The notes below the pieces were generated by a model, which saw only the letters and a program-made list of their open reading frames with translations, had not been told where the DNA came from and made no database searches. Shown here one piece after another: positions 4,706-61,524 of a stretch of 64,000 nucleotides of DNA (its first letter is position 1; every line of letters begins with the position of its first letter). The position numbers and the translations under genes are program-made. Source of the stretch: Blasia pusilla (lineage: Eukaryota); assembly GCA_050084515.1 (NCBI GenBank), contig CM114271.1, positions 11,656,001-11,720,000 on the forward strand, in the 5' to 3' direction.

Positions 4706-5235
4706 GGGGGATGGTATTCTGGCAGGAGAGAGGAATAGAGGAGAGTCTCTCTTAAAAAAAATGCACTAAAGGGAAAAAAACTGAAACTCTCTTCAAAAAA
4801 TATGAAGATTATGGATAATAAGCAAGTAATTTTTTTGGAGATTTCTTTTGAAGAGAGGAAACTTAGTGTAACCCGACGGGTTGCAATTTTTTGAATTTTA
4901 TTTTTTTTGGTTAAGGAAAATTTTTCATTTTTTTCCAAAACCAAAAAAAGAAAACATCAAAAAAAGTTGCAACTCGTTAGATTTTGACGGCGTGAAAAGG
5001 TTTAAAAATTGGAAAAAAAATCCTCTTTTTTTTCCACCACCAAATTTTTTTGGAAAAAATTTTCCTTTTTAACTTGTCGAAACTTTCCTCTCTCCAACAT
5101 GTAGGAAACTCACTTCAACCTGTCGGAAACTCTTTTCAACCTGTCTGAAACTCTCCTCAAACCAAAAGAGCCCTAGGTGTTGCCAATATCTTCCTCTCTC
5201 CTCTCTTCCTCTCTTCCTCTCCTCTTATCGCTCCT
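4706..5235. mobile_element. MITE / non-autonomous Mutator-like element inserted into the gypsy protease region
   Basis: Begins GGGGGATGGTATTCTGGCAGGAGAGAG and ends in the inverted CTCTTCCTCTCCTCTT..CTCCT motif (tip lost). Flanked by CCAACTAGAA (4696-4705) and CCAACTGGAA (5236-5245), which duplicate the gypsy F-Q-L codons, i.e. a 9-10 bp TSD. Confidence 0.8.
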
Positions 5236-8200
5236 CCAACTGGAAGACCTCTCCCGGGTTATCTAGCAACACAACACCAAGAGAAGCCATGGCATGCTCT
5301 ATCGTGGGTCTAGCGGGCATCTCCGCCAACCTAGCAGCCGCAGTCTACCTTGAATCTGACGTGGGCGGCTTGAGCATCCGCTCCAAGGGCTGGTCCATCA
5401 CCTCCTCTGCAATCACCTTGGAACGTGATGCAAGAACTCCAACTCCACACTCACATAACCTTGGCGGGCGTACCTCCCAACATCATAACATCGGAAGCAG
5501 AAAATAAAGGAGTGCGATACACAACGGTGGCCGCCCCCAACCGACACATGCCCCTCCTGAGCATCAGCAATAGGAGTCGTCGCACTTGTTTCTCCCATTC
5601 CCCTCCATGCCTGCACACCAATAACATCACCAACTCTCCGGGAACTCTGATCAGGACCCATCGATGGGGTCCTCATTGCCTCAGACAACGTGAAAGACTA
5701 AGGAAGCTTGGTCTGCTTCCTTGCTTCCCTTTGTTGTGGATCCAACTCTACGGCTGCTCCATGTGTCACAATTGCAGCGGCCTCCATCTGGGCAACCCTG
5801 CACATCCAACCAGGATCCTCCATATCTCTCGCTGCTCCATATGATGTCGATGCCACGGATCCGGCATCGGGTAACCTCAATGCCATAGCGGCAATCTGCT
5901 TCGGTAGCTGCTGTACCTGAGCAGCCATCCCAGCCTCACGCCCAATATATCCCTCAACGCTTCTAGGTGGTGGGACTCTACCTCCTCCATTGGCAACTCC
6001 ACCACCCTGTTGGGCAACTCCAACTCCTCGTCCCCCAACAGGACCACCAGGTGCATGATCTCTAGGCCAACCCGGACCGGCTACTTGCTCTGGTGCCCTC
6101 TCTGGCCCTTGGTCCGGACGTAACTCAGGGTGTAAACTAAAACACCTCGCGCGTGTGTAACCATACCTCTGACAATAATCACATTGATAACCTCATGGTG
6201 TAGCACCATCTCCTCCTCCATGCTGAGGCACACGTCCATGACCTTGACAAGTGCAATCATGTTGATGATGGACTCTACTACATGACGAACAAGTAATCGT
6301 TGGCGGTAGCTTTTGAGCCGTAGGTCTTTGTGGCTCGGCCTCCCGGTACCCTCCCTGAGCTTGTGGTGCCACAATCCACCTATCTCGGAGTCCACGTTGC
6401 TGCACTGGTGGTGCAGACAATCGTGATTGCTCTTGCCCAGAACCCATGGTGGCTACGCTCTCCTCTGCCATGTTGCACTCAATATTCTCGGCGGTCCTAA
6501 AAACATCTCTCAATGTAGGGGAGGTGTTCATAAGAAGCACCCCCCTCCCGCACGCGGGTCTGCAGGGTGTAGTCTAGCATCATGTACCATAACTGGATAG
6601 CTTGAGCCTCTATCACCCCCTGAGTGACGCTGATCAACCGGTGGAAGCGAGTGTAAGCCTCACGCAAACTCTCATCTGGGCACCTTTGGAAGTGGTGGAT
6701 ACTTTGCAACTTCTCCGTCCGTACCCCCTGGTAGCTCGCCCTCAACTCAGCGAAGAACTCAACCACAGGGTTGAACTTGGGACGAACTTGACTAGACGGT
6801 GCAACTGCTCTAGTGCGAGTGACCCCTCCTAAAGCCTCACTAGTGGAAGAGGAAGTAGCCTCTCTTGACTCTTCCTCCTCATCTGGGAACGGCTCCGTCC
6901 ATGACACATAGTGTGGGTCATAGTAGAGTTGCCATGCCTCAATCTCTTGGGCATATTTGTGGGAGAACTCATGATAACTGTCCATGGGCACCCCCCCTGT
7001 GAGTCACACCAACTCCTAAACTCTGCAATAAATTCATGTAGCTCTATAATGCCTACAGCACCCGCAAACCTATGCGGTCCTCTACCCCGGTCGTCCATCT
7101 CATATGCCCAACTGGTAGGACCACTCAATGTGTAAGGTGGATCACTAACACACTCCTCTACACGGTCCCCCTTGTCTGAAGACGAAATTGAAGGAGATCG
7201 AGGTGGTCACTCACGCGGAGACCCTCAAAACCTCGCACCACTCTGGGTAAACCCTCGAGAGCTACTCTCACGTCCACTACCTCATCCTCAAAATCCCGAA
7301 AGGACACCATGATGGCCCTTGTGCCCCTCTCACACGATCACTCTCAATCTTGCGAGTAATCCCTCAATCACTTAAACTAAACATGCGGCACTCAATCTAG
7401 ACTCTCTCACTAAGACGTGTGTTGTGCGGCAACAAGCAGCGTGGTGCATCAAATCAATTGATCTATCGTTTTATCGATAAACCATCCTCAACTCTAGACA
7501 TCTAACACAGGTCCATGTCCCCTAAACCCATACATCATCGATGCTCCTAGCATCAGCATGAAACCCAATATCCCAAATTACTTCCTAATACCCAGAAATC
7601 CCTCACACGTGTAGGGTAAGAGACCATAATGGGGAACCTGAAAATAATGTCGATGTTGCTCCTCGAAAATTGCAAATTTCGACCCCAACTCGGTCGTGGA
7701 GACAACTCCTCCAATCAGCAAGTCGTACTCCTCTTGTACGAACACTGTTCAAACCTCCTCGATGTGCGGCGCAGGTCCAGTGGTCCGGTGCAGCATTGGC
7801 GGCACAGAACGGCTACAAAGGGCACGACACTCGGGAATGGGATGCGGCACTCAGCGGCATACCCTCCTCAATCAGCAATTCACATGCTCTGCTCCTTAGT
7901 GAAGGAGCAGCTCTATGATCGAGATGGTGCGGTGGAGCCACGAGCGGCATGGCATGGCAATCAGCGACACGTTGCAGCTACGGGCGTCACGGCACGGTAC
8001 TCAATCGTTATCGAGCGGCTACCAATCACGACATAGCAACATGAAATGAAAACTCAAACACCATAACCCAAGGTCACATGCCATCATTGGTTGATGACAA
8101 ACCTGCGATGACGGTGGTGGCCAGACCAAAGTATGTGGTGGCGGTGCAAGTCAGAGAATAAATGGTGGTCGTGGAAGACCCTCCAGTCCGTAATGGCAAC

Positions 8201-9534
8201 CAAAGGGTGGAAAAAGGATGAACGCGGCTCTGAGCAACGCTAGGCGGCAGTAGCGGCCGATGGTGGAGGGGGCTGGTATTCTTGCAGGAGAGAGTAAGAG
8301 AGGAGAGGAAGAGAGGAAGAGATCGAGAGAGGAGAGTCTCTCTTAAAAAAAAAGGGCAGAATCTGCCTCCTCTCGTCAAAACTCTCCTACAAACATCCTT
8401 CCATCACTCTCTATGTGAGCCCAATTTTCTTCACATTGCCTGTCAAAGCCAACGCTACAATAAGCCAGACAGAGGGGTATTATTGTTGGAGGACCATCGG
8501 CAGATAATTTGACTCTTACTATGGTCTCAATAGACTCCTATGCCCTTCAAGGTTTAACTTCTCTGAAGATGTGCTTGACATTATGGATTGTTGACTCTTC
8601 TTGCAAAAGGCATTAAATATCCCATCCGATCAATACTCATCCATGAGGGGGTTTTCCACAACAGAACAAATCACTCATCACTGATGGTAGCTGAAGACTT
8701 TCATGACATCATTGGATGATGTTGGCTCATGAATGGGTGCATAAAGTATACCATGGACTGCTATGCGTTTGACAACTTGGTTTCACCATTCTCTCAGCCA
8801 CTAAGAAATGTATGCATCAAGAAGAAAATGTGATGAGATTGAGAAGACAATTGAACCAAAAGGTTGATAGTTGTTTGGAGTAAAGAGAACTGATGTACCC
8901 ATGTCCCTTCATTCAGACCCTAAATGTTGGAATCCGACAGGTTGCACCCCTTCCAACCCGTCGGAATACGATGGGTTGCACCCCTTGCAAGCAAGCACAC
9001 CACAACAAAAGAATGATCTTGATAAGTGATTTCATTCCGCCCTACACCCCATGAGAATCCGAAAGGTTGGGAATCCGACATGAGAATCCGACATGTAGTA
9101 GGAATCCAACACGTCTCTGAAATACCGTGTTAGAGAAGAATGGTGTGACGATAATGGGGGAACGAGGCAAAATTTTAAAATATTGTGACAAGTTGCAACC
9201 TGTCGAAATCTGACGAGTTGCAAAATAAACAGCCTCGAGTCAACACAATCAACACGAAAGAAAAACAATTCAGCAAAGGTTTACAAAAAGAGTGGGATCA
9301 CTCAAGCATCCAACCTGTCGGAATCCGACAGGTTTCCGGAAAGGGGTTAAAAATATTGTGACAAGTTGCAAGCCATCAAAATCCGACTAGCTGCAAAATA
9401 AACAGCCTCGAGTAGATAGATCAACACAATCGACAAGAACGAAAAACAATTCAGCAAAAGTTTACAAAAACCATCATGGTTCAAAAACTTGTCCTTTATT
9501 ACATCCGAGGGAAGCTCATAAATGTACATTTGAT

Positions 9535-12500
9535 CTAGTCTATGATTTCTTCAACCTCGTCATCTACAAATTTACTCTTAACTCTCCTAGGTTCGTGTAC
9601 AAAAGGAATATCTTGGGATACAAGTGGCTCCTCTGGCCGATTGTAGACGGGGATCGTAAATGTTGGGGAGTTCGAGAGCCTTATCCCTCCCCTTGGGTAC
9701 ACTATAACGGTCCCATGTAACATGATTTGAGTCCCAACACCTTCCTCGACAGTAAATCTTGTATCCTCTGCAAGGTGACACACATCCAGTATCAATATGT
9801 GCTCCGTCCTTGGAAAGCACTCAATCCCTACTCCAAAACGCTTCAGTGAAGTTGGGTCCAATAAATCTTTGAAATCACTTGTCATCCTCCGATAGCTCTT
9901 CTAGATTACTCTCGGCTTTGCCCTCCCGATTTTTGGACTAGTAGGCAGTGACGATGGTGTTACTATCAATGGTGGTTCTGGAACTGGAGCTGTTGGCTTT
10001 GGAGGAGAGTTGTATACTCCCACTAGCCTCTCGTAATTTGCCTTTGCCTATTTGCAAAGGTCAAAAAGTTCTAGCCTTCCCTCAAGGCAGAGAATGTTCC
10101 TACCATTATGCTAGGCGCCTCTGATACTCGCCCCTGATAGACCCACTAAGTCAAAGACCGAGTCACCTAGCCTTGAGCAGAGCTCGATGAGCATTTGCAT
10201 CAAGGCAGGTGACTTCTCCCTTCTTCCAAGTAAGGGGATCCCATCCTGCATGTAAATTCCCAGGGGGGAATTGTGAAGACTATCTAAGCTATACCTATCG
10301 GAGGATGGATCCACTGGATCCGGGATCTTGAACACCTGGAAGTTGTGATCGGGCCTTACAAAGCAGTAGACAAATAAATGGTCTATCTGTAAACAAGCAG
10401 GTGGAAAATAATGTCAGCAAAAAGAAAAAGCTAGTAGACCGGTGATCTACTCTTAATATAGTGACACAATGTGCAACCCGTCGGGATCCGACGGGTTGCT
10501 CATTTGGCTAGGCAAAGGCGCAACCTATCGGAGTCCGACAGGTTGCTTTTCAACCCGTCATACTAGTCCATAGTGATTACCAACCCGTCCAAACCCAAAT
10601 ACAAATCCAAATACCCGTCCAAGATGAGCAACCCGTCGGAAGCCCACAGGTTGCTATCGGAGTCCGATGGTTGGCTTACAACTGAATACGATTGTTTAGA
10701 TTTGAGAACTTCTAAATATGAGAGCAACCCGTTGCTTTCAGACGGGTTGCATCACTCCATAAACATGTGGAAAAGTAGTGCTACTTGCAACCCATCGGGT
10801 TCAGACGGGTTGCAGTCAATGGAGACTAGTTGGTGAATTTGCAACCCATCTCTTTTAGACGGATTGCAACACCGCAGACAGAAGCTATTGGGATCCGAAA
10901 GGTTACATGCAGAAATGCAACCCGTCACGTTGAATTTTTGTTCAAAATCAATTCGTTGAAAAAGAGGACTTACCTGGACTTGAGTCGTCGCCGATCTGAG
11001 TGGATACTCATTTTTAATGACCCATGATTGCGCCGTCCTCCACTTTAGCGACCTCTTCACGCACTGAAGGTTGAAGAGCTTGTCTTCTCTCCCTCCAGTG
11101 AGGACCAAGAAACAACCCCTGTCACTCAGATACGCGTTTGCAAAAGAAAACAACAACGCGATGTGGTCGTACGAAAGCGGGACATTATAGTCTGGGACAG
11201 TGGCAGACGGATTGTTGTCCCACAAGCAAAACCCAAAAGGAAAATCCGAAATGAGGAGGTCCACCACCATCTCCTTAAGAACCCCATGCACCGTCTAAGG
11301 GGCGTGGCCGTTTCGAAGGAATTTTCATCCCAGCACAGTCAATTTGTCGATGGCAGGTGTCGACTCCTCAGAACTGAAACTCTGCACTCATCGACAAGAT
11401 GAGCCAAGTGAGTAAGGATATTTGTCCTTGTGGTTGTTTCCCTATGCTTGCCCAAGTATGATGGAGTGTATTCCATATCCTTATCTCCTCCCTCAGACGA
11501 ACCAGGTGCCTCCCGCTTTTGCTTCTCCTGAGTCTATTGTCGGCTTGTTGGAGCATACTCATACTCCACAAGAGTTTTCTTGGACGAGGACATGGTCCGG
11601 ACGACCTTTGCCACCAACTCCAACCTTTGCCACCAACTCTATTGTCTCGAGGGCTTGCTCCTCCATATCTCAAATCATCAAGCTTCACGAAGTCGGAAAT
11701 GTCGTCCCTACCTACAACCACTGCATCATTCACCACGCATAGATTTTTTTCTATAATGTCCTCTGGGTCGTTGAAGTCCAACCAGATTGGAGAATTGATA
11801 ACCTCCCAGTCAAACATGCCATGTCCCATCTCCATGTCGTACATGGAGAATCCCTCTCCATCAGGCGGAGAAGCCCATAATTTGCAGGCTGCCGGTAATT
11901 TTTGCCAGGAACCTGCATTCATACAATTGATGAGGTACGTGTACACCATCCGCTAGGCAGCTCTTTGTCGAGATGACTCGGCCGCCTTGTCCTAAAGATC
12001 CAGCTTCTTCTTTGCAAAATCTCATTTTCTGGTGTCTATTTCCTCATCCAGGTATGCCTAAGGGAGGATGTGATTCTTGAACATCATCATGAATCCTGGG
12101 TTTTTCGTGAGCTAATCTCTAATGTCATCAAGCCATAGTTCAAAATCTTCTGCAGCCTCTAGGTTTGCTTCCTCTGGAACTGGCTCAATCTTCTTCAGCT
12201 CCGCTTGTAGACCCACAATCATGGAGTTCTTTAGAAGGCGCAACGCGTCCCAAAATGACCATTCCCGTAGCCTATGGGAGATGACTGGATCTGAAACTCC
12301 CAGAGGGTAGTGTGCCACTCGCTTTTGGGCCTCTGTGACCTCGAGACTAATTTTCATCAATCGGATTTGCCTAAAATCGGATATCCTAGATAGCGCAAAC
12401 ATGTGCACGCCGTTCAGAGACACTTTCTCTCCGATCCGACCTTGTGGATCTTCGTCTCTCTTCCGCTGGCGCTTGATTATTGCCTTGAGCTCCTTGTAAA

Positions 12501-12830
12501 ACTCCGGGCCAAGTTCGGGGTTGAGAATCGCAATGTAACGCGGCATCTTGCTTGTAGTGTACTTTGTAGCTGCACATACGGCAGCCTGAATAAACTTTGC
12601 ACGCTCTGACGCTGACACGTTCTCCCTTCGCTCCAGTTCCAACGAAGCACTCTTCTTAGCGACCTGGATCTTGGACCAATATAGGATTGTGACGGCTGCA
12701 TTTTGGGAAATGAAGGTATTTGCCTAGGTCTTCTTTTTTATTTGAGCTCGCTTCGCCAGCATCTCATTTACCAGATCGTCGCCCAAGAATCCCTTATACT
12801 CTGTCGGGTGCGTCGTAAGCACCTTCTTCA
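9535..12830 (-). pseudogene. Large multidomain gene with a beta-class N4C/N6A (N6_N4_Mtase-like) DNA methyltransferase domain; one intron at 10387-10973
   Basis: Motif IV VDLLISDFPFG, then AYLSDRGCFLV and SWVIKN; after a phase-0 GT-AG intron, EKSPALMQMLIELCSRLGDSVFDLVGLSGASIRGA*HNGRNILCLE (motifs X-I-II). ORFs 12112-12642 and 11368-11949 share one frame, and 10111-10335 and 9535-9885 share one frame. Confidence 0.75.
10470..10930. repeat. Cluster of TGCAACCCGTCGGANTCCGACGGGTTGCA-type palindromes inside the MTase intron
   Basis: For example TGCAACCCGTCGGGATCCGACGGGTTGC near 10472 and GCAACCTATCGGAGTCCGACAGGTTGC near 10520; further copies at 8925-9400. Confidence 0.9.
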
Positions 12831-13799
12831 TCCTATCGCAACCATTTCGGATTCCCAACTTGTTGGATTTTCGTGGGTGCAGGGTCGAAGGAAATCACTT
12901 CTCAAAATCTTTCCTTTCTTATGGTGAGCTTGCTTGCAAGGGATGCAAGCCATCTGATTTCGATGGGTTGCAAGAGTTGCAACCTGTAAAGTTCCAACGA
13001 GTTGGGAGGGGTGCAGCTTCTCGGTTTCTCTGATTTAGGATCTGAATGAAGGGACATCAGTTCCTCTTTACTCCACACAACTAACAATATTTTGGTTCAA
13101 TTATCGTCTCATGTGTTCACATTTCACAAAGTTGGTCTTGAGCAGACACCACTCATAACCAACAGAAAGTTGTTTATGAGGCAATTCAGGGGAGGCCATG
13201 ATGCAGGCAACAATCCTTGCAAAAAGAGAGGTTGGCATCGTACCGATGCGCTTCCGGGTGGTCCTCCAACAAAAATACCCATGGGCACTGCTTATTGTAG
13301 ACCAAGACATGCAATGTTAAGAAACTTAGGCTCACATGGAGAGTGATGGAAAAATGTTTGTAGTGGTCTTATGATGTCTACTTTTTTTTCGCCCCTTGGA
13401 AAAAGGAGGTTTCTTTAGGCCCGAATGTGGACCACTACCTACTCTCTTTTAAAGATTTCATGAATTTGAAAGCAAACAGAAATTTCAAATATGTCAAAAA
13501 GTTTTGAAGAGAAGAGGCGGATTTGGCCCTTTTTTTTCTAAGAGAGACTCTCCTCTCTTCCTCTCTTCCTCTCCTCTCTTACTCTCTCCTGCCAGAATAC
13601 CAGCCCCCCGCTTCCGCACGCCATTCTCCTGTACAAAAAATCAACAATGAAAAACAACAAACTGAGCGGCCCTTGCTTCCGTGAGTACTCCCATGACCCG
13701 CTGAACGGGGAACATGGTCCCCAACTTGCACCAACAGCAAGCTCTTCCATTGAAGCTCTCTCACTCCATCATTCTCTCTATGTAAATCAACCAAATCAC

Positions 13800-16000
13800 T
13801 CCATCACGATAACAAGGTCTCACACCAAGCTCTCCATGGTGTGCACTCTCTCTCATGTCAAACCAAACCCACTCTCCTAATGAGAGGCTTGGGTTGCACA
13901 TACAAGGCAAGGAGGACCATAGCTCCGCTGCTTCATGCCTAGAGGTTCAACAAAGAGAGAATGAGCTCTCAAGCTCTCTCTCTTGGGGGTATATCCCCTT
14001 CCCTCTCCCAAACCCTATCCACGGTAACCTATGCTCGCAGGTCACCTCCTTGGCTCTTGACGTATTGAAGCAGTTCAAAGGACACTTCCCAAAGTGGAAA
14101 GTCCACTATACAAAAAATTTACCCAAAATAGTAGGTTTCTCAATATGGCTCCAAATAAGCCAAAAAAAAAGGGAAATCTATTCTCATAAGTTATCCGTGG
14201 CCTTATGAACCCTACCCACAATTTTGAACTTTTGAAGAAATACATCTTTTTTTTCAATGAATATTTATATATACATTATGATTTTGATTATTATATATTA
14301 TTATGGGAAGGAATGAGTAAGATTAAAGTGAATCACGAAGCTCCAAGAACAAGACAGAGAGATAGAAAATCAAGGATTTGCCTAAGAGGAGAGGAGAATA
14401 AAATAACGAAGTCTAAGGACCCAGCAAGAAGCTTTGGAAGGACAACGAAGCTCTGTTAAGCTCTGTCTATGAAGTGCTTCGCGCTATAACGAAGCATAAC
14501 GAAGCGTAAGAGAAAGAAGTACTTCGCTCTTGAACGAAGCTCGAAGAACGAAGCATGTGAAACAAGAACAAAGAATAGAGCGCTTCGTCTTCAGATCAGG
14601 AGAAAGAGCTTCGTCCTCAAGCGAAGCAAAAGAGGTCCGGACTTAGCAGCGAAGCGAATCTAAGATTGACAATGATTTCAAGCGACACATAGTTAGAACA
14701 ATTAGAATAGGAAAAGACACAACCCTTTGTATCAGATTGGTAGTTATGACAATTTTATTCTACGGATTCATAGGGATCTTAGGAAAAGAAAAGAGCACCA
14801 TAGATCTAGGTAGTTACAAATGTTGAAGAGACACCAACTTCATAAAAAACGTTTCGAATCTTTGGATCACTCCTCCTTCAGAGAGCATTTAAGAAGCATA
14901 GAAGTAACTATCATCATCATTCTCTTACAAAGTCCTTATGTTGTAGGAATGGTCCGAGCAAGGGGAGTAGTACCCTCTTGAGCTTGTATACCCTTTTGAA
15001 GCTTTCTCATTCTTGATGGAGTAGTAAAGCAATCATTCATTCATTCTGATGTGTGATGCTTATGTTTGAGTATTCTTTTTGGGTCTGCAGAGTGAAGAGT
15101 GAATCAGGCAAACCTTTCTCATCACTGGAATAATCAACATAAAGTTGTGGGAAATCTGTTTGACAAAGAGTAGCATGCCGAGACGGATTGAGTTCCGAAA
15201 GTAGGAGAAGCCAGCTTTCATGTTGAGGTCTCTGTGAGGTTTCTTGATATCGAGAGGAAATCTACCCAAACATGTTGTCAACTCCATTAGAGAGAATTGA
15301 GAAAAGAAACTTTGGTACTAGGAAAGATCCGAAGATATTGATAAGACATTGAATATAAATCATACACATTTAAATACAACTATTACAACAGAATTGTAAT
15401 TTCGAACTGTCTTTTCATCAAACGATGATCCTCTTGGGGATCGAACTTAGTAAACGACTGTAAAATAGAAACTCTTGTACATTACACCTTAGTAAATCAT
15501 CCTCAACCTCTTGAGGCTGTCCTCCAGTATCTTCGAAGATGCTTTACTAGATCTCATCGATCTATCCTCATAGATGTGACATCGTCGATATGCACCCAAA
15601 CACACTCACGTTAGTGTGATCTGGGTCAATCGGCACTAACCCACCAAGTTCTCGACTCCGAAACTCATCAAACTCAACCTTCCCTCATTCCTAGGTTCCC
15701 AACACGGGCAAGTCTCAGAAGACTTGGGACATACTTTCTGGTTAGTCTAGGCACCTGAAATGACGTTTGCGTGCCTAGCGGTCCCAACTGTCTGATGGAC
15801 CTCGCATGAGCTACCCACCAAAACTCAATGATATGAGTCACAGGTTAGAATCCAATAGGGACCTCCAAAATCCACTCTATTGGACTTGGTTTGGGTTTCG
15901 AATCCCAACGCCAAAACTCTGGATCCATTCCGTGCCCTTGAGTCGCCTCGCGGTGCCCAAAGTGGGATTCGAGTCCCAAGCATCCTTGGAGATCTTCCCC
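13800..16000. repeat. Dispersed repeat family, interrupted by the solo LTR
   Basis: 13850-14205 and 15487-15580 match about 115-580; 15660-15810 matches 46020-46170 in inverted orientation. Confidence 0.75.
14206..15486 (+). mobile_element. Solo LTR related to the LTRs of the 17.1-25.1 kb gypsy element
   Basis: TG...CA termini, perfect CCTTA TSD (14201-14205 and 15487-15491), colinear with 17151-18378. Confidence 0.92.
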
Positions 16001-17150: not shown

Positions 17151-18388
17151 TGTGATATCCACAAGTTTGTACTTTTGAAAAAATATATCTTTTTATTCAA
17201 CGAAGATTCTTGTGCATCATGGTTTTGATTATTATTTATTATTATGAGGAAGAATAAGTAAGATTAAAGTGAATTACGAAGCTCCAAGGACAAGGCAGAG
17301 AGATAAAAAATCAAGGATTTGCCTTAGAGGAGAGGGGAATAAAATAACGACGTTTCAAGACCCTAAATCAGCAAGAAGCTTCGGAACGATAACGAAGCTC
17401 TGTCTACGAAGTGCTTGGCTCTATAACGAAGCATAACCAAGCAGGAAGAAAAAAAGAAAGAAGTACTTCGTTCTTATGTGCAAGCACAAGCACCTTAAAC
17501 AAGAACGAAGAATGGAGCGCGTCCTCAAGAAGTCCAATGGCGTTTAAGCTAAGAATGACAATGATTTCAACCGACACACCGTTGTAACATTTAGACTAGG
17601 AAAGGGCGCGACCCTTTGTATCAGATAGATAGTTAGGACAGTTTTGTTGTGCGGATTCACAGGGATTGTAGGAAAAGCTAAGATAACCATAGATCTAGGT
17701 AGTTACAAATGCTGAAGAGACACCACCTTCATCAAGGACGCTTCGAATCTTTGGATCACTCCTACTCCAAATGAGTATTTAAGAAGCAAGACGAAGCCAT
17801 AATCATCATTCTCTTACGAAATCCTTATGCTGTAGGAATGGTTCGACCAAGGGAGTAGTACCCTCTCGAGCTTGTATACACTTTGAAGCTTTCTCATTCT
17901 TGATGGAGTAGTAAAGCAATCATTCATTCATTCATTCTGATATGCGATGCTTATGTTTGAGTATTCTTTTTGGGTCTGCAGAGTGAAGAGTGAATCAGGC
18001 AAACCTTTCTCATCAATGGAATAATCAACATAAAGATTGTAGGAAATCTGTTTGACAAAGAGTAGCCTGCCGAGACGGATTGAGTTCCAAAAGTAGGAGA
18101 AGCCAGCTTTCTTGTTGAGGTCTCTGTGAGGTTTCTTGATATCGAGAGGAAATCTACCTGAGCATGTTGTTAATTCCACTAGAGAGAATTGAGAAAAGAT
18201 CCCTTGGTACTAAGAAAGATCCGAAGATATTGATAAGATATTGAATATAACTCATACACATTTAAATACAACTATTACAACAGAATTGTAATTTCGAACT
18301 GTCTTTTCATCAAACAATGATCCTCTTGGGGATTGAACTTATTAAACGACTGTAAAATAGAAATTGTTATACATTACATATAGCAAAA
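17151..18388 (+). repeat. LTR in inverted orientation relative to the adjacent element
   Basis: TGTGATATCCACAA...CATTACATATAGCAAAA, a near-identical reverse complement of 23834-25073. Confidence 0.92.
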
Positions 18389-21300
18389 TGATCAACCCAT
18401 TGGCTTTAGGGTTGTAGGGCGTGGTCTTCCGATGCTTAATGAGAAAGTGGGAAGTTAGAGACTCAATAGTCTTGTTCAAGAAGTGGGTGCCACGATCACT
18501 TACTAATTCCAATGGGTAGCCATACCGAGTGATAATCATTTCGTATAAAAATTTGGCTACTGCCTCACTGTCATCTTTTCGCGTGGCCACCGCCTCGACC
18601 ATCTTGGTACAATAGTCGGTGGAAATAAGGATATAGCCGCCGTATTTGGCGAGTAGCGGGGGGATAGGGCCCACAAAGTCAATACCCCATTTTTCTAAAG
18701 GAGCTAGGGGCATGATGGGTACCAAAGGCCACCGCGAGGTAGCCGTTGGTCGACCTGCTCTTTGACAGGCATCACAACTTTTGATAAAGTTACCTACATC
18801 TTTGAACATAGTTGGCCACCAATAATGTGCGGCCAAGATTTTCTTAACGGTATTTTTTACAGCGTTGTGTCCACCAGAATCAACCCACATGCATGGCTCT
18901 GATGACGTGGGGGATTTCTTCTGCTTCCAAAAATCGCCGATACTCTTCATCTGCACCTAATTTGAATAGTATCCCCTGACATATCTCATATGGTCCTATC
19001 TTATGCAAAAAGACTACTTGTTCCTCCGCTGTCATAGGGGCGGGAAGTCGCAGAGTAATTAAAAAGCGCAAAATATCTTCATAAAAAGATTGGCACAACC
19101 GATCCTCCGTGATCTGGAACAGGTCTTCATCGGGAAAGGTGTCATCCACGGATTCTATGAGGTCCGCGTTCGTCATCCTCAACCGGGAAAGAAAATCCGC
19201 ATTGGTATGAATCTTGCCGGCACGGGTAACGACATCAAATGTGAATTCTTGGAGCAACAGGATCCATCGCGCAATGCGACCTGACAGGTCCGCCTTTACC
19301 ATTAATGGTCTGAGCGCGAAATGATCTACATGGAAGACAAATTCGTACCCTAATAAATAGTGTCGGAACTTTTTACACGAGAAGACCATGCCTAGCGCCT
19401 CTCATTCGGTAGTTGTATATTTCTGCTCCGCTGAATATAGTTGCCGGCTTGCGTAGTAAACCAGGAAGTCATGTTTATTTTCATCAAGTTGGCTGAGCAC
19501 CACTCCAATGGCAAACGAGGATGTGTCCACATATACGTGGAAGGGTTTGGTCCAATCGAGGGACCGAAGTATAGGAGCCTTTTGCAATGCTCCCTTTAAG
19601 GCGTCAAATGCCGCTTGGCAGGATGGGGTCCACTCTCATTCGGTAGCTTTTTTAAGTAATGCGGTAAGAGCTCCTGCTTTCACTGTATAATCTCTAATAG
19701 ATCGTCGATAATATTCGACGTGTCCCAAGAATCCTCTCAATTCTCGGAGATTGGTGGGTGGTTCCAATGCGACAATAATATCCACCTTGGCCTTGTCGAC
19801 TTCAATTCCTTGAGCTGACACTCTGTGCCCCAACAAAATCCCTTGTTTCATGGCAATATACAATTTTTCCAGATGGAGGGACAAATGCACTTCGCGACAA
19901 CGAGCGAGGTTTAATTCTAATTTTTTGAAGTGTTCGGCCTCTGTACTGAAGATACAAAAATTGTCCAGGAAAATTTCAACAAACTTCCGCAGATACTCTT
20001 GGAAGATGGAGATCATCATTCGTTGGAAGGTAGCTGGCACATTGCATAACCCAAAGGGCATCACACGATACGCGAAAGTTCCCCAGTCCGTGGTGAAAGT
20101 TGTGAGGGGCCGATCTTTTTCTCGTATGGATACCTGGTTATAACCCGAGTATCCATCCAAAAAGGTATAACGCTCGTGGCCAACAACTTTGTCCAAAATA
20201 CTATCAGTGAAAGGTAGGGGATGATGGTCTTTTAAGGTGGCCGAATTTGATTTCCGATAATCCTGGCACACTCTGATTTTTCCCGTTTGTTTTTGGGTAC
20301 AATCACAATGGGAGACACTCACTCGCTACTTAACATACGATAAATTATTCCTGCCCAAAGACGATGGTCGATTTCACCCTTGACTAACAACGAGTACTTC
20401 GGGTTGAGGCGATACTGCCTCATCCGTACCGGGACCGCACCTTCTTTAGGTCAATTCGATGTTCACCATACCATGCTAGAATGCCTGTCATTTCATCCTT
20501 GGAGTATGCAAACACATCTTAATACTCGAACAACAACGTTTTATACTTAATGAGTTTGGTTGGAGACAAATCCGCCGAGAGGAGTAGAGACTTCTGACCT
20601 GTAATTAAGACTTGTACGTAGTCCTTTTCTTGAACCATGTTTTCTGTGAACTGGAATATGCTATTACCCAGCTTCTCTTCCTCTCGCGTCGACTTCTGTT
20701 TGCTAGGTACCGACTCCTCGTCTATTTCATAACATTCTAAATAATACACATTGGACAAGGACTCAGTAGCTGTAGTTTGCTCTTGATCTGACCTATAGCC
20801 TTCATCGGTCGGTGGCGTTTCTCCTTGGGGTGGTCGTGATTTCCACGACACCTTGATGAGCCACTTTGAGACATGGTCCGGAGCCTAGAACGTGAATCGT
20901 CTCCTTTTCTAGTCCGTAGTCACTCTCGCACCGTACAACCATGGTCTTCCAATAAGCAAAGGATAGCCAGTGGCTGTTAGGGGTTGCAATACTAAGTAGT
21001 CCAACAGAAATAGCATCCCGCCAAGCATGGTCGAGATCTGAGTGAGCTGTACGAGGGGTCGCTTCCGGGACTGATCCGCGAACCGCAGATACTTGTCGGT
21101 GGGCTCGTACTCCGTGTATCCTAGTGCCCGGGCCGTCTATTCCGTCATAATGTTAATTCCGCTTCCTGAGTCAATGGGGACCTTCTTAATGGTGTGTCCC
21201 TCAATCTCCACTTCTACCTCTGGTGCTCCCAAATCTTCCACTTCGATACGTAACAGATCCACTACTGGTAGATTCTTTGCAGACTTCTTGGGTTTTCTAC

Positions 21301-36811: not shown

Positions 36812-37069
36812 TTGAGTGTGACAGAGATATGATTCGCCCAGAAAGAATGCGAATGAGAATGAGAATGTTGAATTTATAGTTGATGGTATCCGTTAAGACT
36901 CTGACAATGGTTGGTAGTTAGGTTGAACCATCGTCAGCTGCTTGGACCAGCCAGAAAGGAATATTCGTATATCCTTACACTTGGTATACAAGCCTTTATA
37001 GGGGATATTGTTAGTGAACCCATAGAATTCCTCTAGGACATATGGGGAAAGAGTCCCCACGGGGTCCTT

Positions 37070-38170
37070 CAACCCGTCGGAATCCGACGGGTTGAATAGA
37101 CATAGTGAAATGGCCTATGGGACCCTTTGAGTCTCCAAAGTGCAACCCGTAGGGTTCCGTTCGATTGCACTGTATCGAGAGATGGGTTGGAAGAAGATCA
37201 TGAAGTTTCTCCCAGTGCAACCTGTTGGACTCCGTTGGGTTGCATAACGACACTAGATGGGCAGGGACAATGTCATGGTGCAACTTGTCGGACTCCGACG
37301 GGTTGTAGTTTGACATGAGACGGGCTGCGAGGTCACAAAATTTGTCTCAACGCAACTCGTCGGATTCCGTCGGGTCGTAAGAAGACACTAGATGGATAGG
37401 AAGAATGTCATGGTGCAACCCGTCGAAGTCCGACAGGTTGTAGTGTGACACAAGATGGGTTGGAAGAAGGTCAAGAATTTTTTCCGAGTGCAACTTGTTA
37501 GATTCCGCCGGGTTGCATAAAGACACTCGATGGGCAGGGAGAATGTCATTGTGCAACCCGTCCGACTCCAACGGGTTGTAGTTTGACACGAGATGGGCTG
37601 GGAGGTCATGAAGTTCGTCTGAACGCAACTTGTCAAATTCTGTCGGGTCGCCAAAAGACACTAGATGGGCAGGAAGAATGTCACGGTGCAACCCGTTGGA
37701 GCCCGATGGGTTGTAGTGTGACACGAGATGGGCTGGGAGAAGGTCAAGAATTTCGTGAGAGTGCAACTCGTTGGATTCCGTTGGGTGGCATAAAGACACT
37801 CGATGGGTAGGGAGAATGTCATTGTGCAACGCGTCGCACTCCGACGAGTTGTAGTTTGACACAAGATGGGCTGGGAGGTCATGAAGTTAGTCTGAGCGCA
37901 ACTCGTGGAATTTTGTCGAGTCGTAAAAAGACGCTAGATGCGCATGAAGAATGTCATGGTGCAACCCGTCGGAGTTCGACGAGTTGTAGTGTGACACAAG
38001 ATGGGTTGGAAGAAGGTCATGAATTTTGTCCAAGTGCAACTCAGACACTTGATGGGCAAGGAGTGTCATGATGCAACCCGTCAGAGTTTGAAAGGGTTGC
38101 ACGCATCCCACGCGGAATACGGGGCGTAACGGCCTATCGTTGCTGTTGCAACCCGTGGCATTCTGACAAG
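37070..38170. repeat. Tandem array of ~29-bp palindromes with a 273-bp higher-order unit
   Basis: Palindromes start at 37141, 37216, 37279, 37351, 37414, 37489, 37552, 37624, 37687, 37762, 37825, 37897, 37960 and 38035. Confidence 0.93.
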
Positions 38171-39344: not shown

Positions 39345-41953
39345 GTTGTGCAGCAAATGAAGCAAACGCTTTGCTCTCTCTACTGTTTATCTAACTCTAG
39401 TGCTCAACAATATCTATATATAGATTTTCCTTCATATTATTGTTGGAGTAAGAAGACAGGGATTCCTAGGATACAAAATATAAATGGTTGTGGTCATCCC
39501 ATTAGCCGCTTATACCTTACTCATCCAGGTAAATACTAGAAAATCCTTTATAAATAATTTTCTTTTATATACCGACCTCAACAAATAGTGTATTTATATC
39601 GGGATGAGTTAATTATTCTACTTCTTCATAGGTGAAGGAGAACATCATTGGTTGAGATTACTCTTCCATCATGTTCGAGGAGCAACTACATATGAATGCT
39701 TAAAAACTGTTCATGGGGTAAAATGTTCAACTTTTAAGGAGGCTCCTATCCAACTGGGACTTCTTGAGGATGATAGAGAAGTCTTCTCTTACTTTGAAGA
39801 AGCTTCTTTGATCCGTACAAGTTCTTCACATTGCCGTCTTTTTGCATTTATTCTAGTGTACAACACACTTGCTGAACCTGCAAGACTACGGAGTCAATGC
39901 TTGGTTCCATTGGTAGAAGATCTCTTATATGAGAAATGTCATATAAGAATTCATTATATCATTCATTTTCCTCCTAATAGTATCCTCTATTAAGTATTCA
40001 ACATTCCTAATTGTATCTTCTATCATTCAACCTACTAACCATGATTTGGGACATTTTTGGAACTCTCCAATTGTAGAAAACAAGACTTTCTAATCCTCCC
40101 GTTGATGATGCCATAGTTATTATTGCATTTTTGGAAGTTCATTGTTATTTACAAGATCAAGGAAATAGACTGTCTGAATTTCCACACATGCCCCAAGCTA
40201 ATTTCCAGAGCATTCATTCACATTCATATTTGGAGGAACAAGAGCTATTATATGATACGAAAGAATTATTTGAGCAAGTGCAATTGGGAGAAGCGTATCT
40301 TAATGAAGGACAACGTATTATTTGGGACGCTATACATGATGAGCTTGATCAAATATGTGCGAATGCTCTATCATCTCCGAAAGTATTTTTCAATGACAGT
40401 CCAAGTGGAACGGGAAAAACCTTTTTATATAATTTTCTCCTTGCAAGTATAAGGAGTGCAAGAGGTATAGCTTTGGCCATAGCGTCATCTGAAATACATG
40501 CTCTATTGTTAGTCGGAGGATGTATTACTCATTCATGCTTCAAGATCCCCATCAATCTTCATGAGAGCCCTACTTGTAAGTAAGTGCCATTAGTCATTCT
40601 AACTAGCTTGAATTATGTTCATACAGAAATTTGAATTACTCCAAGTATTACAACTTCCAATATACTTCCATTTTTTGTTTGTAGTTTATCAGTGGATAGT
40701 GATGGAGCGCGCTTAATACATGTTGTAATACTCATTATATGGGATGAAGCACCTATGGCTCATCGTCATGCATTTGAAGCCGTAAAATCAAACTCTACGA
40801 GATATGATGGGAGTTGTTTCAGATGATCTACGTCAAATACCATTTGGTGGAAAACTTATGGTATTTGGTGGTGATTTTTGTCAAGTGTTGCATATTGTTA
40901 GTCATGGGGATCGGCCTCAAATCATCCAAGCCACCATAAAGAGGTCATCTCTTTGGTCTAATGTGAAGGTCATGAAGTTGACAACAAGCATGCGAGTTCA
41001 AAGATTGGAAAGTCATTTGCTCAATGAACAACAAGCGTTTGCTGATTGCTTATTGGAAGTGGGAGAGGGTCGTATACCTTTGCATCCTCATTTGGGAGAA
41101 GACTTTATACGATTACCATCGGAAATTGTTACTGAAAGTAACAAGATATGCGATCTTATTGATATGATCTATGGCAATTTTCCTAACCGATTCCATGACA
41201 TTGATTTCTTGAGAGATACAACTATTTTGACTTTGAGAGAAATAAATATGTTGACGACATAAATACAGACGCTATGTCTCGGTTTCCTAGAGAGGTATAT
41301 ATTCTTAACATATATTTGTTTTCTTATGGGAATTTTATTTTTGGGAAGTTTGTATATTAAAAATATTTTTTCTCACAAATTCATTGAATATTGTGTAAAT
41401 GAGCATATTTACCTCAACGTCGACTCTATTCCGAATGAGGGGATGAATCATATCTATCCAACTGAATTTTTGAACACATGCTTGCCATTTTGACTTCCTC
41501 TCGATCATTTGTGTTTGAAGATTGGTGCACCAATCATGCTGTTATGAAATATGAACACATGGACAAGCAAACGGAATAAGATTGGCGATTCATGGATCTA
41601 TGCAACATTGCATTGATGCTGAGATTATCATCGGGAAGAATATTTGCGATCGAGTCTTTATTCCATGTATCCCATTGATTGCACCAGATTTAGGTTTGCC
41701 ATTTGATTTAAGGAGGTTTTAGTTCCCTATTCGACCAGCTTTTGCTATGACTATTAATAAGTCTCAATGTCAAACTTTGCAAAAGGTTGGCATTTACTTG
41801 CCTACTCCAGTATTTTCTCATGATCAATTATATGTAGCGTTATCTAGGGTAGGGAAGAGAACTTCGATCCACATTACCATTGGAAGCGATGAACATTCAA
41901 ATATGGAAGGTGACTACACATGAAATATAGTGTATAAAGAGATACTTGAATGA
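39345..41953 (+). pseudogene. Helitron-type PIF1 helicase (3' part of RepHel), decayed, with introns
   Basis: LRLLFHHVRGATTY, LGLLEDD, Walker [56 protein letters not shown] and NIVYKEIL. No Rep motifs seen. Confidence 0.9.
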
Positions 41954-52000: not shown

Positions 52001-52913
52001 ACCTATGGAGCAGGGATGGAAATGACACCTTTTTGTGACTCGGATTGGACAAGAGATTCAGATTCTCGAAGATCAGTTTTGGGTTATTTCTTCTTGGTAG
52101 GATCAGGTGTGGTGTCATGGGTAAGCAAGAAGCAACCTACAGTGGCTCTTTCTTCTACCGAGGCAGAGTACAAGGCGGCTTGTTATGCGTCTTGTGAAGC
52201 AGTATGGTTGAGATGGATATTGGAGGACATAGGAGAAGTACGAGAAAGTGCTACTGTAATGTAGTGTGACAATCAGAGTTGCATTGCCATAGCACATAAT
52301 CTTGTGTTTCATGCTCTTACAAAGCACATAGAGATCCAGTATCATTTTGTTCGTGAATTGATCGAGTGAGAGGTTTTGAAGTTAGTCTATTGTCCAACAG
52401 AGGATAACCGTGCAGGATAACTTCACGAAAGCTTTGAGCGGAGATCAGCTTCACCGACATCTAAAGGGTCTTGGCATAGGTCCAAGAGAGTAGTCCACAT
52501 GAGAGTGGATATTGAGGGGGGGGGTGTTGGATTCTCAACATCCACTTGTATGAGGAGAAGCCTAGATTGATGGTTTTGACTTAGACGTCGGAGGAGTCAT
52601 AGTAATATGACGTAGGTGGTTACATGAGTAGCGTTACTAGGATTATCTAACCCTATATTGCATCAAGATGCACGGTATCCCGATGGAAAATTTTTCTATG
52701 AATAGAAACGAAGAAAAATAGGTAGAAACCCTAGTTTTCCCGAGTAGTGAAATAGTCAAGAGCCGCAGCAGTAGTGCATTCTCGTATGTCGAGTTATCTC
52801 CATGTTTAGGTTCCATTGAAGCTCTTCTGTGAGCGCACAGACGGACTAGGCCACTTTGTATCTCTAAGTTTTGTAAAGATTTCAGTGATTTTCTCACTTT
52901 CTATTTTTTCACA
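49070..52913 (+). mobile_element. Ty1/copia retrotransposon, family A; LTRs 49070-49492 and 52525-52913; gag/PR largely deleted
   Basis: TG...CA LTRs, PBS TGGTATCAGGGC, G-rich PPT, IHVDLCG, KARLVAQG, YVDD, ALSSTEAEY. Flanks ATATA and AAATA. Confidence 0.93.
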
Positions 52914-61200: not shown

Positions 61201-61524
61201 GTTTTCCCACCACAAGTGCAACAAGTGTTTTATGGAGATGCTGATGAGGATGGAGGATGGAAAGTGGGAATGAGGAAGGAAGCTAGAGCTCGGAGAGTTT
61301 ATTTTGATGAGTCACTAGATGGAGCTTGTAATGCTCTGCCCACCTTCTATGCCACATGCATGGAACCACAGAATCTACCAGATGCAAGCACCTTAGGAGC
61401 TAGAGTCCTAAGTGATGCAGAAATGGAAGCAACTAGAAAGGATGTGCAGCATGTGCAAATAATCCATGTATGCGATATGGTAGAAGATATTCATTCAGAC
61501 TCTAATAACTCAGAATTAGATTAG
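58227..61524 (+). pseudogene. CACTA/En-Spm (TnpD/TNP2-like) transposase, decayed
   Basis: IHACPAGCVLF, CPLCG, DGVNPF...STWP...NYNLPP, LWTIHDYPA, HMLDVMHVEKNI, KVPSGY and the C-terminal PFVFPPQVQQVFY...W. Element termini not identified. Confidence 0.9.

Follow-up and report, generated by a model that had tools for sequence, protein, structure and literature searches.

Can a plant DNA transposon hold a DNA methyltransferase gene of its own? This question is raised by positions 8268 to 13608 of the 64,000-nucleotide stretch of Blasia pusilla DNA analyzed here (the window), where long inverted arms enclose a gene whose translation resembles a prokaryote-type enzyme. Transposons are known to borrow cytosine-5 DNA methyltransferases. 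Dam-type enzymes have likewise been borrowed, in retrotransposons, according to a recent study (Fernandez-Moreno et al. 2026, bioRxiv 10.64898/2026.05.21.726589). Full-text literature searches turned up no permuted PF01555-type enzyme in any terminal inverted repeat (TIR)-bounded DNA transposon or in any transposon of land plants.

One gene enclosed by long inverted arms

The predicted architecture, imperfect inverted arms of about 800 bp around one minus-strand gene, is borne out by the sequence. Sixteen inverted pairs were detected between 6000 and 16000, and nine of these (I1–I9) join the left arm (8268–9082, plus strand) to the right arm (12843–13608, minus strand). The 55-nt arm tips (8268–8322 and 13554–13608) are 98% complementary, and the best-kept part of the left arm is its terminal repeat at 8268–8383. 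Self-BLAST of the arms put their similarity at 87% over the terminal 117 nt, at 71% over an inner stretch of 292 nt and at 78% over one of 110 nt, and the mid-arm portions aligned poorly to each other. Palindromic GCAACCC..GGGTTGC units are present in the left arm (8936–8979), and one such unit is present in the right arm (12945–12971), which probably also holds the promoter of the gene. The 27-nt tip occurs three times in the window when up to 3 mismatches are permitted, versus 0.00 occurrences expected. Its third occurrence marks a solitary copy of the terminal repeat (4706–4761, plus strand; 40 nt, matching the right tip at 92.5%) that is accompanied by a palindromic unit at 4875.

Mutator-like elements (MULEs) with accessory genes and Pack-MULEs have long TIRs, an internal non-transposase gene and non-autonomous copies, and all of these features recur here. 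However, the 9- to 11-bp target-site duplication and MURA-type transposase of MULEs were not found in the window. When the element flanks (GATGGTGGA and CGCTTCCGC) were compared for direct repeats, no target-site duplication, of 9 bp or any other length, was evident at either candidate boundary, nor was one present at the 4706 tip. A MULE, SWIM or other DNA-transposase domain was found in none of the 31 window ORFs scanned, and the 64-kb window contains neither an empty insertion site nor a second complete copy of the element. The label "Mutator-like" in the original prediction is based on arm length, and membership in this group is putative.

The internal gene, now a pseudogene, occupies 9535–12699 on the minus strand. 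It starts near 12699, about 140 nt to the inside of the right arm, and ends with a stop codon at 9537–9535. One long minus-strand gene had been foreseen correctly, and the peptides quoted for it are exact translations of that strand. Its length is about 859 codons after splicing. From its 5′ end, the gene comprises an N-terminal region (11764–12573) that belongs to no Pfam family, an exon encoding the catalytic half of the methyltransferase domain, from motif IV (DFPF) through a W.I.N..P.R block (10974–11294), a phase-0 GT-AG intron (10387–10973), and a last exon. The first part of the last exon (9952–10386) carries the end of the catalytic half, the variable region and motif X (EKSPALMQMLIE), then motif I (GDSVFDLVGLSGAS) and a GRN..CLE block. 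It is followed by a C-terminal tail (9535–9951) that overlaps the peak of DNA read depth at 9576–9772. An AATAAA hexamer on the same strand (9495–9500) adjoins the end of RNA coverage at 9494.

The predicted intron position holds up: the intron, 587 nt in length, begins with GTAAGT and closes with TTTACAG, and both a profile alignment and homology to a Riccia protein run through its junction. It is packed with the palindromic units of the arms, with 14 motif matches between 10473 and 10926. This motif has 45 matches overall, which are clustered, versus 4.9 expected.

This copy is decayed, as had been recognized. It has 9 to 11 premature stops, among them in-frame stops at 12114, 12060, 12024, 11994, 11955, (11327), 11297, 10113, 10050 and 9903, the first five of which lie in the N-terminal region. 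The expected ATG start codon reads AAT. There are two frame breaks. The frame changes somewhere from 11368 to 11310, and one nucleotide is missing after 9904 when this copy is compared with 83 of 106 RNA reads and 51 of 116 DNA reads. Judged by the reads at 10112 and 10169, the damage is peculiar to the present copy. With the change at 10112, the TAG of the stop at 10113–10111 reads TGG in 713 of 826 DNA reads and in 78 of 80 RNA reads, and at 10169, 647 of 733 DNA reads encode proline in the "PGD" context of canonical enzymes.

Homology to beta-class amino-methyltransferases

The gene holds a very diverged, permuted domain of the beta-class PF01555 type, judging from alignments that sensitive methods alone could detect. 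The exon-2 ORF by itself scores 11.2 bits (E 0.36) against Pfam PF01555, below the gathering cut-off of 26.7 bits, and neither exon 1 nor either of the two Riccia relatives described below matches any Pfam family at E up to 1. In contrast to this Pfam result, more sensitive profile comparisons were significant. Against a profile of 43 natural beta-class methyltransferases, the spliced product attains 21.6 bits (E 7e-9 as a single test), whereas the best of 300 sequence shuffles reaches 0.8 bits; the Riccia proteins, at 9.0 and 3.3 bits, also beat all 300. The alignment is collinear, with profile positions 44–167 matched to residues 6–129 across the splice junction and positions 222–272 matched to residues 168–218.

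Profile-profile alignment with hhalign gave 96.8% and E 2.6e-10, collinear over 214 columns with residues 27–272 of Escherichia coli YhdJ, and the alignment score of 71.3 compares with 23.7 for the best of 100 column shuffles. Aligned singly, the two halves match YhdJ 27–126 (E 7.2e-6) and YhdJ 162–272 (E 9.3e-6); the unspliced pieces give weaker values (E 7.1e-5 and 0.0024). In three of four libraries searched, a DNA methyltransferase was the sole match of the exon-2 ORF (Pfam PF01555, E 0.36; PHROG 3008, E 0.14; PADLOC MTase_III, E 0.083), and NCBIfam returned no match. In a blind profile scan of all 810 window ORFs, the exon ORFs ranked first and fourth, each non-significant singly (E 0.43 and 2.2). 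Sequence searches of the PDB yielded nothing significant, the best methyltransferase match having E 0.16, and the Atlas model of the Riccia sorocarpa protein has a pLDDT of 0.33.

As predicted, the order of motifs is that of bacterial and phage beta-class PF01555 enzymes such as YhdJ and Helicobacter pylori "DpnA" (5hfj/5hek), in which motifs IV through VIII and the variable region precede motifs X and I; the catalytic motif IV region is N-terminal and the AdoMet-binding half is C-terminal. Identity to these enzymes is about 15%, and the gene differs from them in having an extra N-terminal region of about 370 residues, a C-terminal tail, an intron and a eukaryotic transposon setting. Fusion to additional domains had been proposed, and here the N-terminal region is indeed conserved in Riccia, whereas the C-terminal tail matches no recognized family.

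Motif IV reads DFPF in the window copy and DLPT and DLPK in the relatives from R. sorocarpa and Riccia fluitans, with D and the last P invariant across all three. Its second residue is also a non-proline in 12 of the 43 natural references (DLPY in 7, DAPY in 3 and DIPY in 2). At the fourth position, at least 90% of the references have Y, and therefore F is compatible there but T and K are not. Motif I of the decayed copy, DLVGLSGAS, lacks the first glycine of the DPFxGSGTT found in references, and the P and L of the preceding "PGDL" are restored in most reads. With the Pfam threshold unreached, F, T or K at the fourth position of motif IV and VGLSG in motif I, the claim that the element carries its own 4mC/6mA writer is unproven.

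Genomic copies, transcripts and Riccia relatives

The family is multi-copy, as predicted, and old. A sample of about 1% of one run yielded 26,917 genomic reads that align to 5.9 kb at 85% identity or more, of which just 447 align at 99% or more. Read depth is comparable in the right arm (500–880) and along segments of the gene (about 80–930), values that have no single-copy baseline and so leave copy number uncalibrated.

RNA reads give good coverage of 9494–10388 only. Their depth falls from 13–24 over 10167–10363 to 0–1.5 over 10561–10954, in agreement with the intron, although the exon 1–exon 2 junction itself was not seen in these reads. The RNA derives from one or a few expressed related loci. 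A T-to-C variant at 9684 is carried by 82 of 87 RNA reads versus 14 of 533 DNA reads, and the RNA-read sequence beyond 10388 has no clear match to exon 1 of this copy (about 41% identity by eye).

A phmmer search of 1.84 billion protein representatives with exon 1 found relatives only in the liverwort genus Riccia, as two hypothetical proteins with one annotated per species (P0002 from R. sorocarpa and P0003 from R. fluitans), and returned no canonical methyltransferase. In both, the homology covers the N-terminal region and the first half of the methyltransferase domain. The N-terminal region is 27% identical to P0002 residues 23–273 (E 9e-17), and the catalytic-half exon is 34% identical to P0002 residues 387–482. 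Homology to P0003 runs on across the splice junction, whereas P0002 ends 4 residues past it.

Origin and possible role of the gene

On balance, we favor the reading that 8268–13608 is a dead, non-autonomous copy of a long-TIR transposon family that has its own methyltransferase-derived accessory gene. The gene would be one belonging to the family rather than a captured fragment because the inter-arm interval is taken up by a complete coding sequence that extends from its start to a poly(A) signal and because the palindromic motif of the arms also fills the intron. These same features count against a Pack-MULE-like capture, in which a diverged methyltransferase-like host gene was taken whole by a long-TIR element and amplified, so that the locus seen in RNA would be the parent gene of the host and the TIR-bounded copies inert passengers. 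We consider this history, the main rival, less likely, though it accommodates several observations: the element has no transposase, one annotated homologue exists per Riccia species among the 1.84 billion representatives, read depth along the gene is uneven (83 to 930), and the RNA-read sequence past 10388 diverges from exon 1. An RNA source in one or a few loci, with variants rare among DNA copies, is compatible with capture and not diagnostic of it. Pack-MULEs usually carry fragments and stay low-copy. Moreover, the count in R. sorocarpa may understate transposon-borne copies if genes were called on masked sequence; the available part of that genome's description reports a repeat scan by EDTA and RepeatMasker.

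That the methyltransferase likeness is a chance motif match within a decayed ORF of unrelated origin is very improbable. The thresholds of curated libraries were not reached and the ORFs were singly non-significant in the window-wide scan, but each half aligns to its proper counterpart in the enzyme and the two are properly ordered, with a joint score far beyond the sequence and column shuffles, and both the Riccia proteins and the sole matches of exon 2 in three of four libraries point the same way. We give still less credence to the idea that the protein of about 860 residues is the mobilizing enzyme of a novel type of element, its N- or C-terminal regions supplying DNA cleavage. One gene between long arms in a multi-copy family does resemble a simple autonomous transposon. 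Nevertheless, library searches placed no part of the protein in a nuclease or transposase family, no target-site duplication was found, and we know of no transposase with a methyltransferase fold.

If the locus is a transposon with its own accessory gene, that gene would be distinct from the transposase gene and is presumably transcribed from the arm. In the middle of its product lies the methyltransferase domain, and the regions on either side of it belong to no recognized family. Mobilization would then depend on an autonomous relative, not seen here, that provides a transposase in trans. Intact relatives probably contact DNA by way of the methyltransferase fold. They may do so as a binder of DNA or chromatin that has no catalytic role and affects host marking of the element, which we think the likelier role, or, with lower probability, as a methyltransferase of adenine-N6 or cytosine-N4. 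A more far-reaching proposal strikes us as improbable: that intact members encode an active N6-adenine or N4-cytosine methyltransferase used on their own or host DNA, for example to escape or imitate host marking, and that liverwort genomes acquired prokaryote-type amino-methyltransferases, the ancestors of DN4MT1 among them, through such elements.

A methyltransferase is an uncommon transposon cargo, and enzyme activity is unproven here. The family is a candidate system in which a transposon could direct DNA marking or counter silencing, and even a catalytically dead domain would be a case of a mobile element putting a methyltransferase fold to new use.

Known systems resemble this one in part. 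DAM-carrying DIRS and LTR retrotransposons are likewise amplified transposable elements bearing a prokaryote-type DNA amino-methyltransferase domain; they are present in many copies, and activity in E. coli has not been seen so far (Fernandez-Moreno et al. 2026). They differ in having a Dam-type domain with an Asn-Pro-Pro motif and a reverse transcriptase or tyrosine recombinase. Membership in that group was rejected, given that 8268–13608 contains no reverse transcriptase or recombinase and that its domain matches PF01555-type references rather than Dam. The available portion of that text does not mention land plants, bryophytes, Mutator or PF01555, and refers to DNA transposons solely in general terms.

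Liverworts are the only plants in which a 4mC system based on a prokaryote-type enzyme has been proven. In Marchantia, MpDN4MT1a/b form a tandem pair of host genes that have a canonical TSPPY motif and a shown 4mC function (Walker et al. 2021, bioRxiv 10.1101/2021.02.12.428880). The present gene is also a prokaryote-type amino-methyltransferase gene in a liverwort-lineage genome, but it has DFPF, is multi-copy and is TIR-bounded. A multi-copy, partly expressed relative in this lineage offers a testable route for the entry and spread of such genes in plant genomes. The bdelloid N4CMT has a permuted PF01555 domain with gained introns and extra eukaryotic domains, as here; it is encoded by a single host gene pair, has a chromodomain, is active in E. 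coli and silences transposons (Rodriguez et al. 2022, PMC8885841), whereas the gene described here rides inside one.

Structure and decay of the gene, and expression of related loci

The minus strand between the arms of the element (positions 8268 to 13608) holds open reading frame pieces of 203, 194, 180, 100, and 121 residues. These lie within a gene of ~859 codons that extends from ~12699 to a stop codon at 9537 to 9535, close to the single minus-strand gene of roughly 900 codons originally predicted, and an AATAAA sequence is present at its 3′ end (9500–9495). The phase-0 GT-AG intron proposed for positions 10973 to 10387 is also upheld. This intron of 587 nt starts with GTAAGT and ends with TTTACAG; once it is spliced out, ...SATTQVQ is followed in phase 0 by IDHLFVYCF..., and the methyltransferase profile alignment described below crosses the resulting junction.

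The warning that this copy carries stops and a frameshift proved correct. The expected start ATG reads AAT, in-frame stops are located at 12114, 12060, 12024, 11994, 11955, (11327), 11297, 10113, 10050, and 9903, and the frame changes between 11368 and 11310. The stop at 10113 to 10111 is private to the window copy: TGG stands in place of TAG in most DNA reads (713 of 826) and in nearly all RNA reads (78 of 80). Likewise, the L of codon 73 (10169) is P in 647 of 733 DNA reads and the S of codon 76 is L in 780 of 791, and these majority residues yield PGDL just upstream of motif I, which is nearer to the canonical pGD.VLDPF. Among the in-frame variants listed for 10348 to 9938, a biased subset (drawn from 40 of 1,455 variants), four are synonymous, 11 change a residue (in one codon via two adjacent changes), and one removes the stop, as expected for neutral decay. 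TAG accounts for eight of the 11 premature stops, and transitions dominate the differences between the window copy and the reads; decay by deamination of methylated cytosines would fit this pattern.

Three stranded RNA runs cover 9576 to 10363 at a depth of 13 to 41, and the first mate is almost always on the plus strand, indicating that the RNA derives from the minus strand. Depth falls to between 0 and 1.5 over 10561 to 10954 and is ~1 over exon 1, and coverage stops at 9494. Two of the three runs contain reads (10 and 15) that diverge precisely at 10388, beyond which they share one uniform sequence. This sequence is only ~41% identical by eye to the end of exon 1 in the window copy, and its reading as spliced exon 1 was rejected. 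The break marks an exon boundary, but the junction between exons 1 and 2 was not seen in these runs. At 9684, a T-to-C change is carried by 82 of 87 RNA reads and by 14 of 533 DNA reads. As the RNA carries variants that are rare in the DNA, one or a few loci are expressed, and the window copy is not among them.

Relationship to permuted beta-class methyltransferases

The gene had been predicted to encode a prokaryote-type beta-class N4C/N6A DNA methyltransferase. General family searches do not reach significance. Pfam PF01555 matches exon 2 only, at 11.2 bits (E 0.36) against a cut-off of 26.7. The sole matches of exon 2 in PHROGs and PADLOC are a DNA methyltransferase family (E 0.14) and MTase_III (E 0.083), respectively, and the NCBIfam search returned no family. 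A phmmer search of the PDB with both exons gave nothing relevant, and a PDB profile search gave no significant match; across these PDB searches, the best methyltransferase was 5hfj/5hek (E 0.16).

A more specific profile was built from 43 beta-class enzymes, namely E. coli YhdJ and 42 of 74 IMG/VR loci related to yhdJ (24–61% identity), leaving out 25 near-identical loci (L002–L026) and seven partial matches. With stops written as X, the spliced window product scores 21.6 bits against this profile (E 7e-9 as a single test), whereas the best of 300 shuffles scores 0.8. The alignment is collinear through the splice junction, with profile positions 44 to 167 corresponding to residues 6 to 129 and positions 222 to 272 to residues 168 to 218.

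Two relatives of the protein were identified when the 180-residue reading frame was compared by phmmer with 1,835,955,588 representative proteins, of which three matched at E ≤0.001. The best match (P0001), a mucin-like protein from a skate, was rejected as an artefact because it aligns only with the translated palindromes of the intron. The others are hypothetical proteins from the liverworts Riccia sorocarpa (P0002; 488 aa, E 1.5e-8) and Riccia fluitans (P0003; 305 aa, E 3.1e-8). The R. sorocarpa protein matches window positions 12573 to 11764 (27% identity, E 9e-17) as well as 11309 to 10968 (32%, E 1e-14), and thus the first half of the putative enzyme and the N-terminal region belong to one conserved architecture. 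It terminates four residues past the window exon boundary; the R. fluitans protein runs across this boundary with homologous residues. Both exceed all 300 shuffles against the 43-reference profile, at 9.0 and 3.3 bits, respectively.

Neither Riccia protein matches a Pfam, NCBIfam, or PADLOC family at E ≤1, and their PHROGs matches are sub-threshold (E 0.12–0.26) to families of unknown function. Word-indexed protein searches gave no match with exon 1 or the N-terminal reading frame, and with the R. sorocarpa protein recovered only itself. Atlas feature matches of the latter at 0.85 are to SAM-dependent methyltransferases (TRM11/UPF0020, some with PF01555) and serve as leads only; its Atlas structure model is unreliable.

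Profile–profile comparison of the three-member family with the references gave 96.8% (E 2.6e-10) over 214 columns equivalent to YhdJ 27 to 272. The score of 71.3 compares with a maximum of 23.7 (4.5%) among 100 column shuffles and 14.6 for the reversed sequence. Moreover, each half alone finds the correct half of YhdJ (27–126, E 7.2e-6; 162–272, E 9.3e-6), and so the predicted beta-class order, with the catalytic half first, is borne out. Three results count against this reading: the unspliced pieces reach just 62.9% (E 7.1e-5) and 12.3% (E 0.0024) by hhalign; in a blind profile scan of 810 window reading frames of at least 40 residues, the exon frames rank 1st and 4th but at E 0.43 and 2.2; and the PDB searches described above lack significance. 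Overall, these comparisons make it highly probable that the element protein is homologous to the permuted beta-class amino-methyltransferases. It is not especially close to those references that read D-x-P-Y, with 62.9% versus 95.3% for the DPPY group.

Arms, palindromes, and copies of the element

Imperfect inverted arms of ~800 bp had been described, and indeed nine of the 16 inverted pairs found within 6000 to 16000 (I1–I9) join 8268 to 9082 with 12843 to 13608. The 55-nt tips (8268–8322 and 13554–13608) are 98% complementary. Self-BLAST identity is 87% over the terminal 117 nt and 71% and 78% over inner stretches of 292 and 110 nt, and mid-arm sequence aligns poorly. The Mutator-like classification is thus putative: the long inverted arms fit it, but there is no target-site duplication of any length at the flanks (GATGGTGGA left, CGCTTCCGC right), and a DNA transposase was not found among 31 window reading frames scanned. 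No empty site occurs within the 64-kb window, no Rfam family within 8000 to 14000, and metagenome scans with the N-terminal reading frame and the arm tip as queries gave no match.

Three copies of the 27-nt arm tip are present in the window when ≤3 mismatches are allowed (0.00 expected). The solitary third tip (4706–4761) has the orientation of the left arm, matches the right tip over 40 nt at 92.5%, and has no matching partner; it is separated from 8268 by a gag fragment (6497–7003). This tip may represent what is left of a second element, or else an outer left end.

A palindrome of ~27 nt, GCAACCCGTC...GACGGGTTGC, has 45 half-site matches in the window at ≤1 mismatch (4.9 expected), and these cluster in the left arm (8936–8979), the right arm (12945–12971), the intron (10473–10926; 14 matches), beside the solitary tip (4875–4884), and in a separate array (37069–38157; 18 matches). 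Folding energies of single units range from −8 to −16 kcal/mol (z-scores −4 to −7.6). Because the palindrome is found in the arms as well as in the intron, it links the gene with the element.

When ~1% of a single genomic run was mapped, 26,917 reads fell on 8000 to 13900 at ≥85% identity, with 447 at 99% or above, 3,646 at 95 to 99%, 9,611 at 90 to 95%, and 13,213 below 90%. Summed depth is uneven: 49 over 8197 to 8393, ~95 to 225 over the left arm (8394–9181), 500 to 880 over the right arm, 619 over exon 1, 550 to 680 over exon 2, 83 over 11546 to 11742, and a maximum of 927 over 9576 to 9772. The family is multi-copy and old, with a copy number that is uncalibrated because both flanks are repeats and thus offer no single-copy baseline. 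For example, the right flank (13847–14200) is 80% identical to the window start (120–486) and has a read depth of ~1,600.

In many copies, ~9809 to 9816 is joined through 12 to 29 other letters back to ~9085 to 9095. These joints have 39 to 88 read starts each, and involve regions 9483 to 9816, where depth is highest (~930), and 9085 to 9116. It is possible that a separate or rearranged high-copy repeat extends into the 3′ tail of the gene.

Possible activity and origin of the gene

The original prediction noted that DFPF and DLVGLSG depart from consensus, as the references confirm. Motif IV reads DFPF in the window, DLPT in R. sorocarpa, and DLPK in R. fluitans, wherein the D and final P are invariant. 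Among the 43 references it reads DPPY in 27, DLPY in seven, DAPY in three, and SPPY, DPPF, and DIPY in two each, and hence the second position is not fixed. At least 90% of 26 aligned references have Y as the fourth residue, which suggests that F would be compatible with catalysis and that T and K would not. Motif I in the decayed window copy reads DLVGLSGAS. We lean toward a non-catalytic or atypical role for the element protein.

The observations fit a non-autonomous element whose accessory gene belongs to the family better than they fit a captured fragment, because the gene is whole from start to poly(A) signal, is flanked by arms, carries the arm motif in its intron, and has a read depth comparable to that of the arms. 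Capture of a host gene by the element is nonetheless a serious rival, and is favored by the missing transposase, by the single annotated homologue in each Riccia species, and by expression from one or few loci. The homologue count is open to another explanation, however: the R. sorocarpa genome is described as scanned with EDTA and RepeatMasker, and transposon-borne copies may be hidden if gene calling was done after masking.

The gene differs from its closest known counterparts. MpDN4MT1a/b, tandem genes with a proven 4mC role (10.1101/2021.02.12.428880), carry TSPPY rather than DFPF. Both these and N4CMT, which has a chromodomain (PMC8885841), are host genes, whereas the Blasia gene lies between transposon arms. 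DIRS and LTR retrotransposons carry Dam-type domains, which have so far shown no activity in E. coli (10.64898/2026.05.21.726589); the gene described here is of PF01555 type and lies in a long-TIR element. Full-text literature searches revealed no gene of PF01555 type in any DNA transposon or in a transposon from land plants, although the supplements of these methyltransferase papers may name additional eukaryotic PF01555 genes or links to transposons.

The window as a whole is repeat-rich plant DNA, with domains of Gypsy-type and Copia-type retroelements, a gag fragment, DUF4216, and a PIF1 helicase. Retroelement debris is located at 18342 to 20325 (minus strand) and at 51009 to 52264, 54032 to 54625, 61012 to 61524, and 62478 to 63026 (plus strand). 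Its domains include integrase, RNase H, and RVT_1 (Gypsy-type), RVT_2, copia-type gag (twice), and a weak DUF4216 match (E 0.0019). The reading frame with the PIF1-like helicase domain (40077–40583; E 2.7e-19) lies ~2 kb from the palindrome array at 37 to 38 kb and is possibly Helitron-derived.
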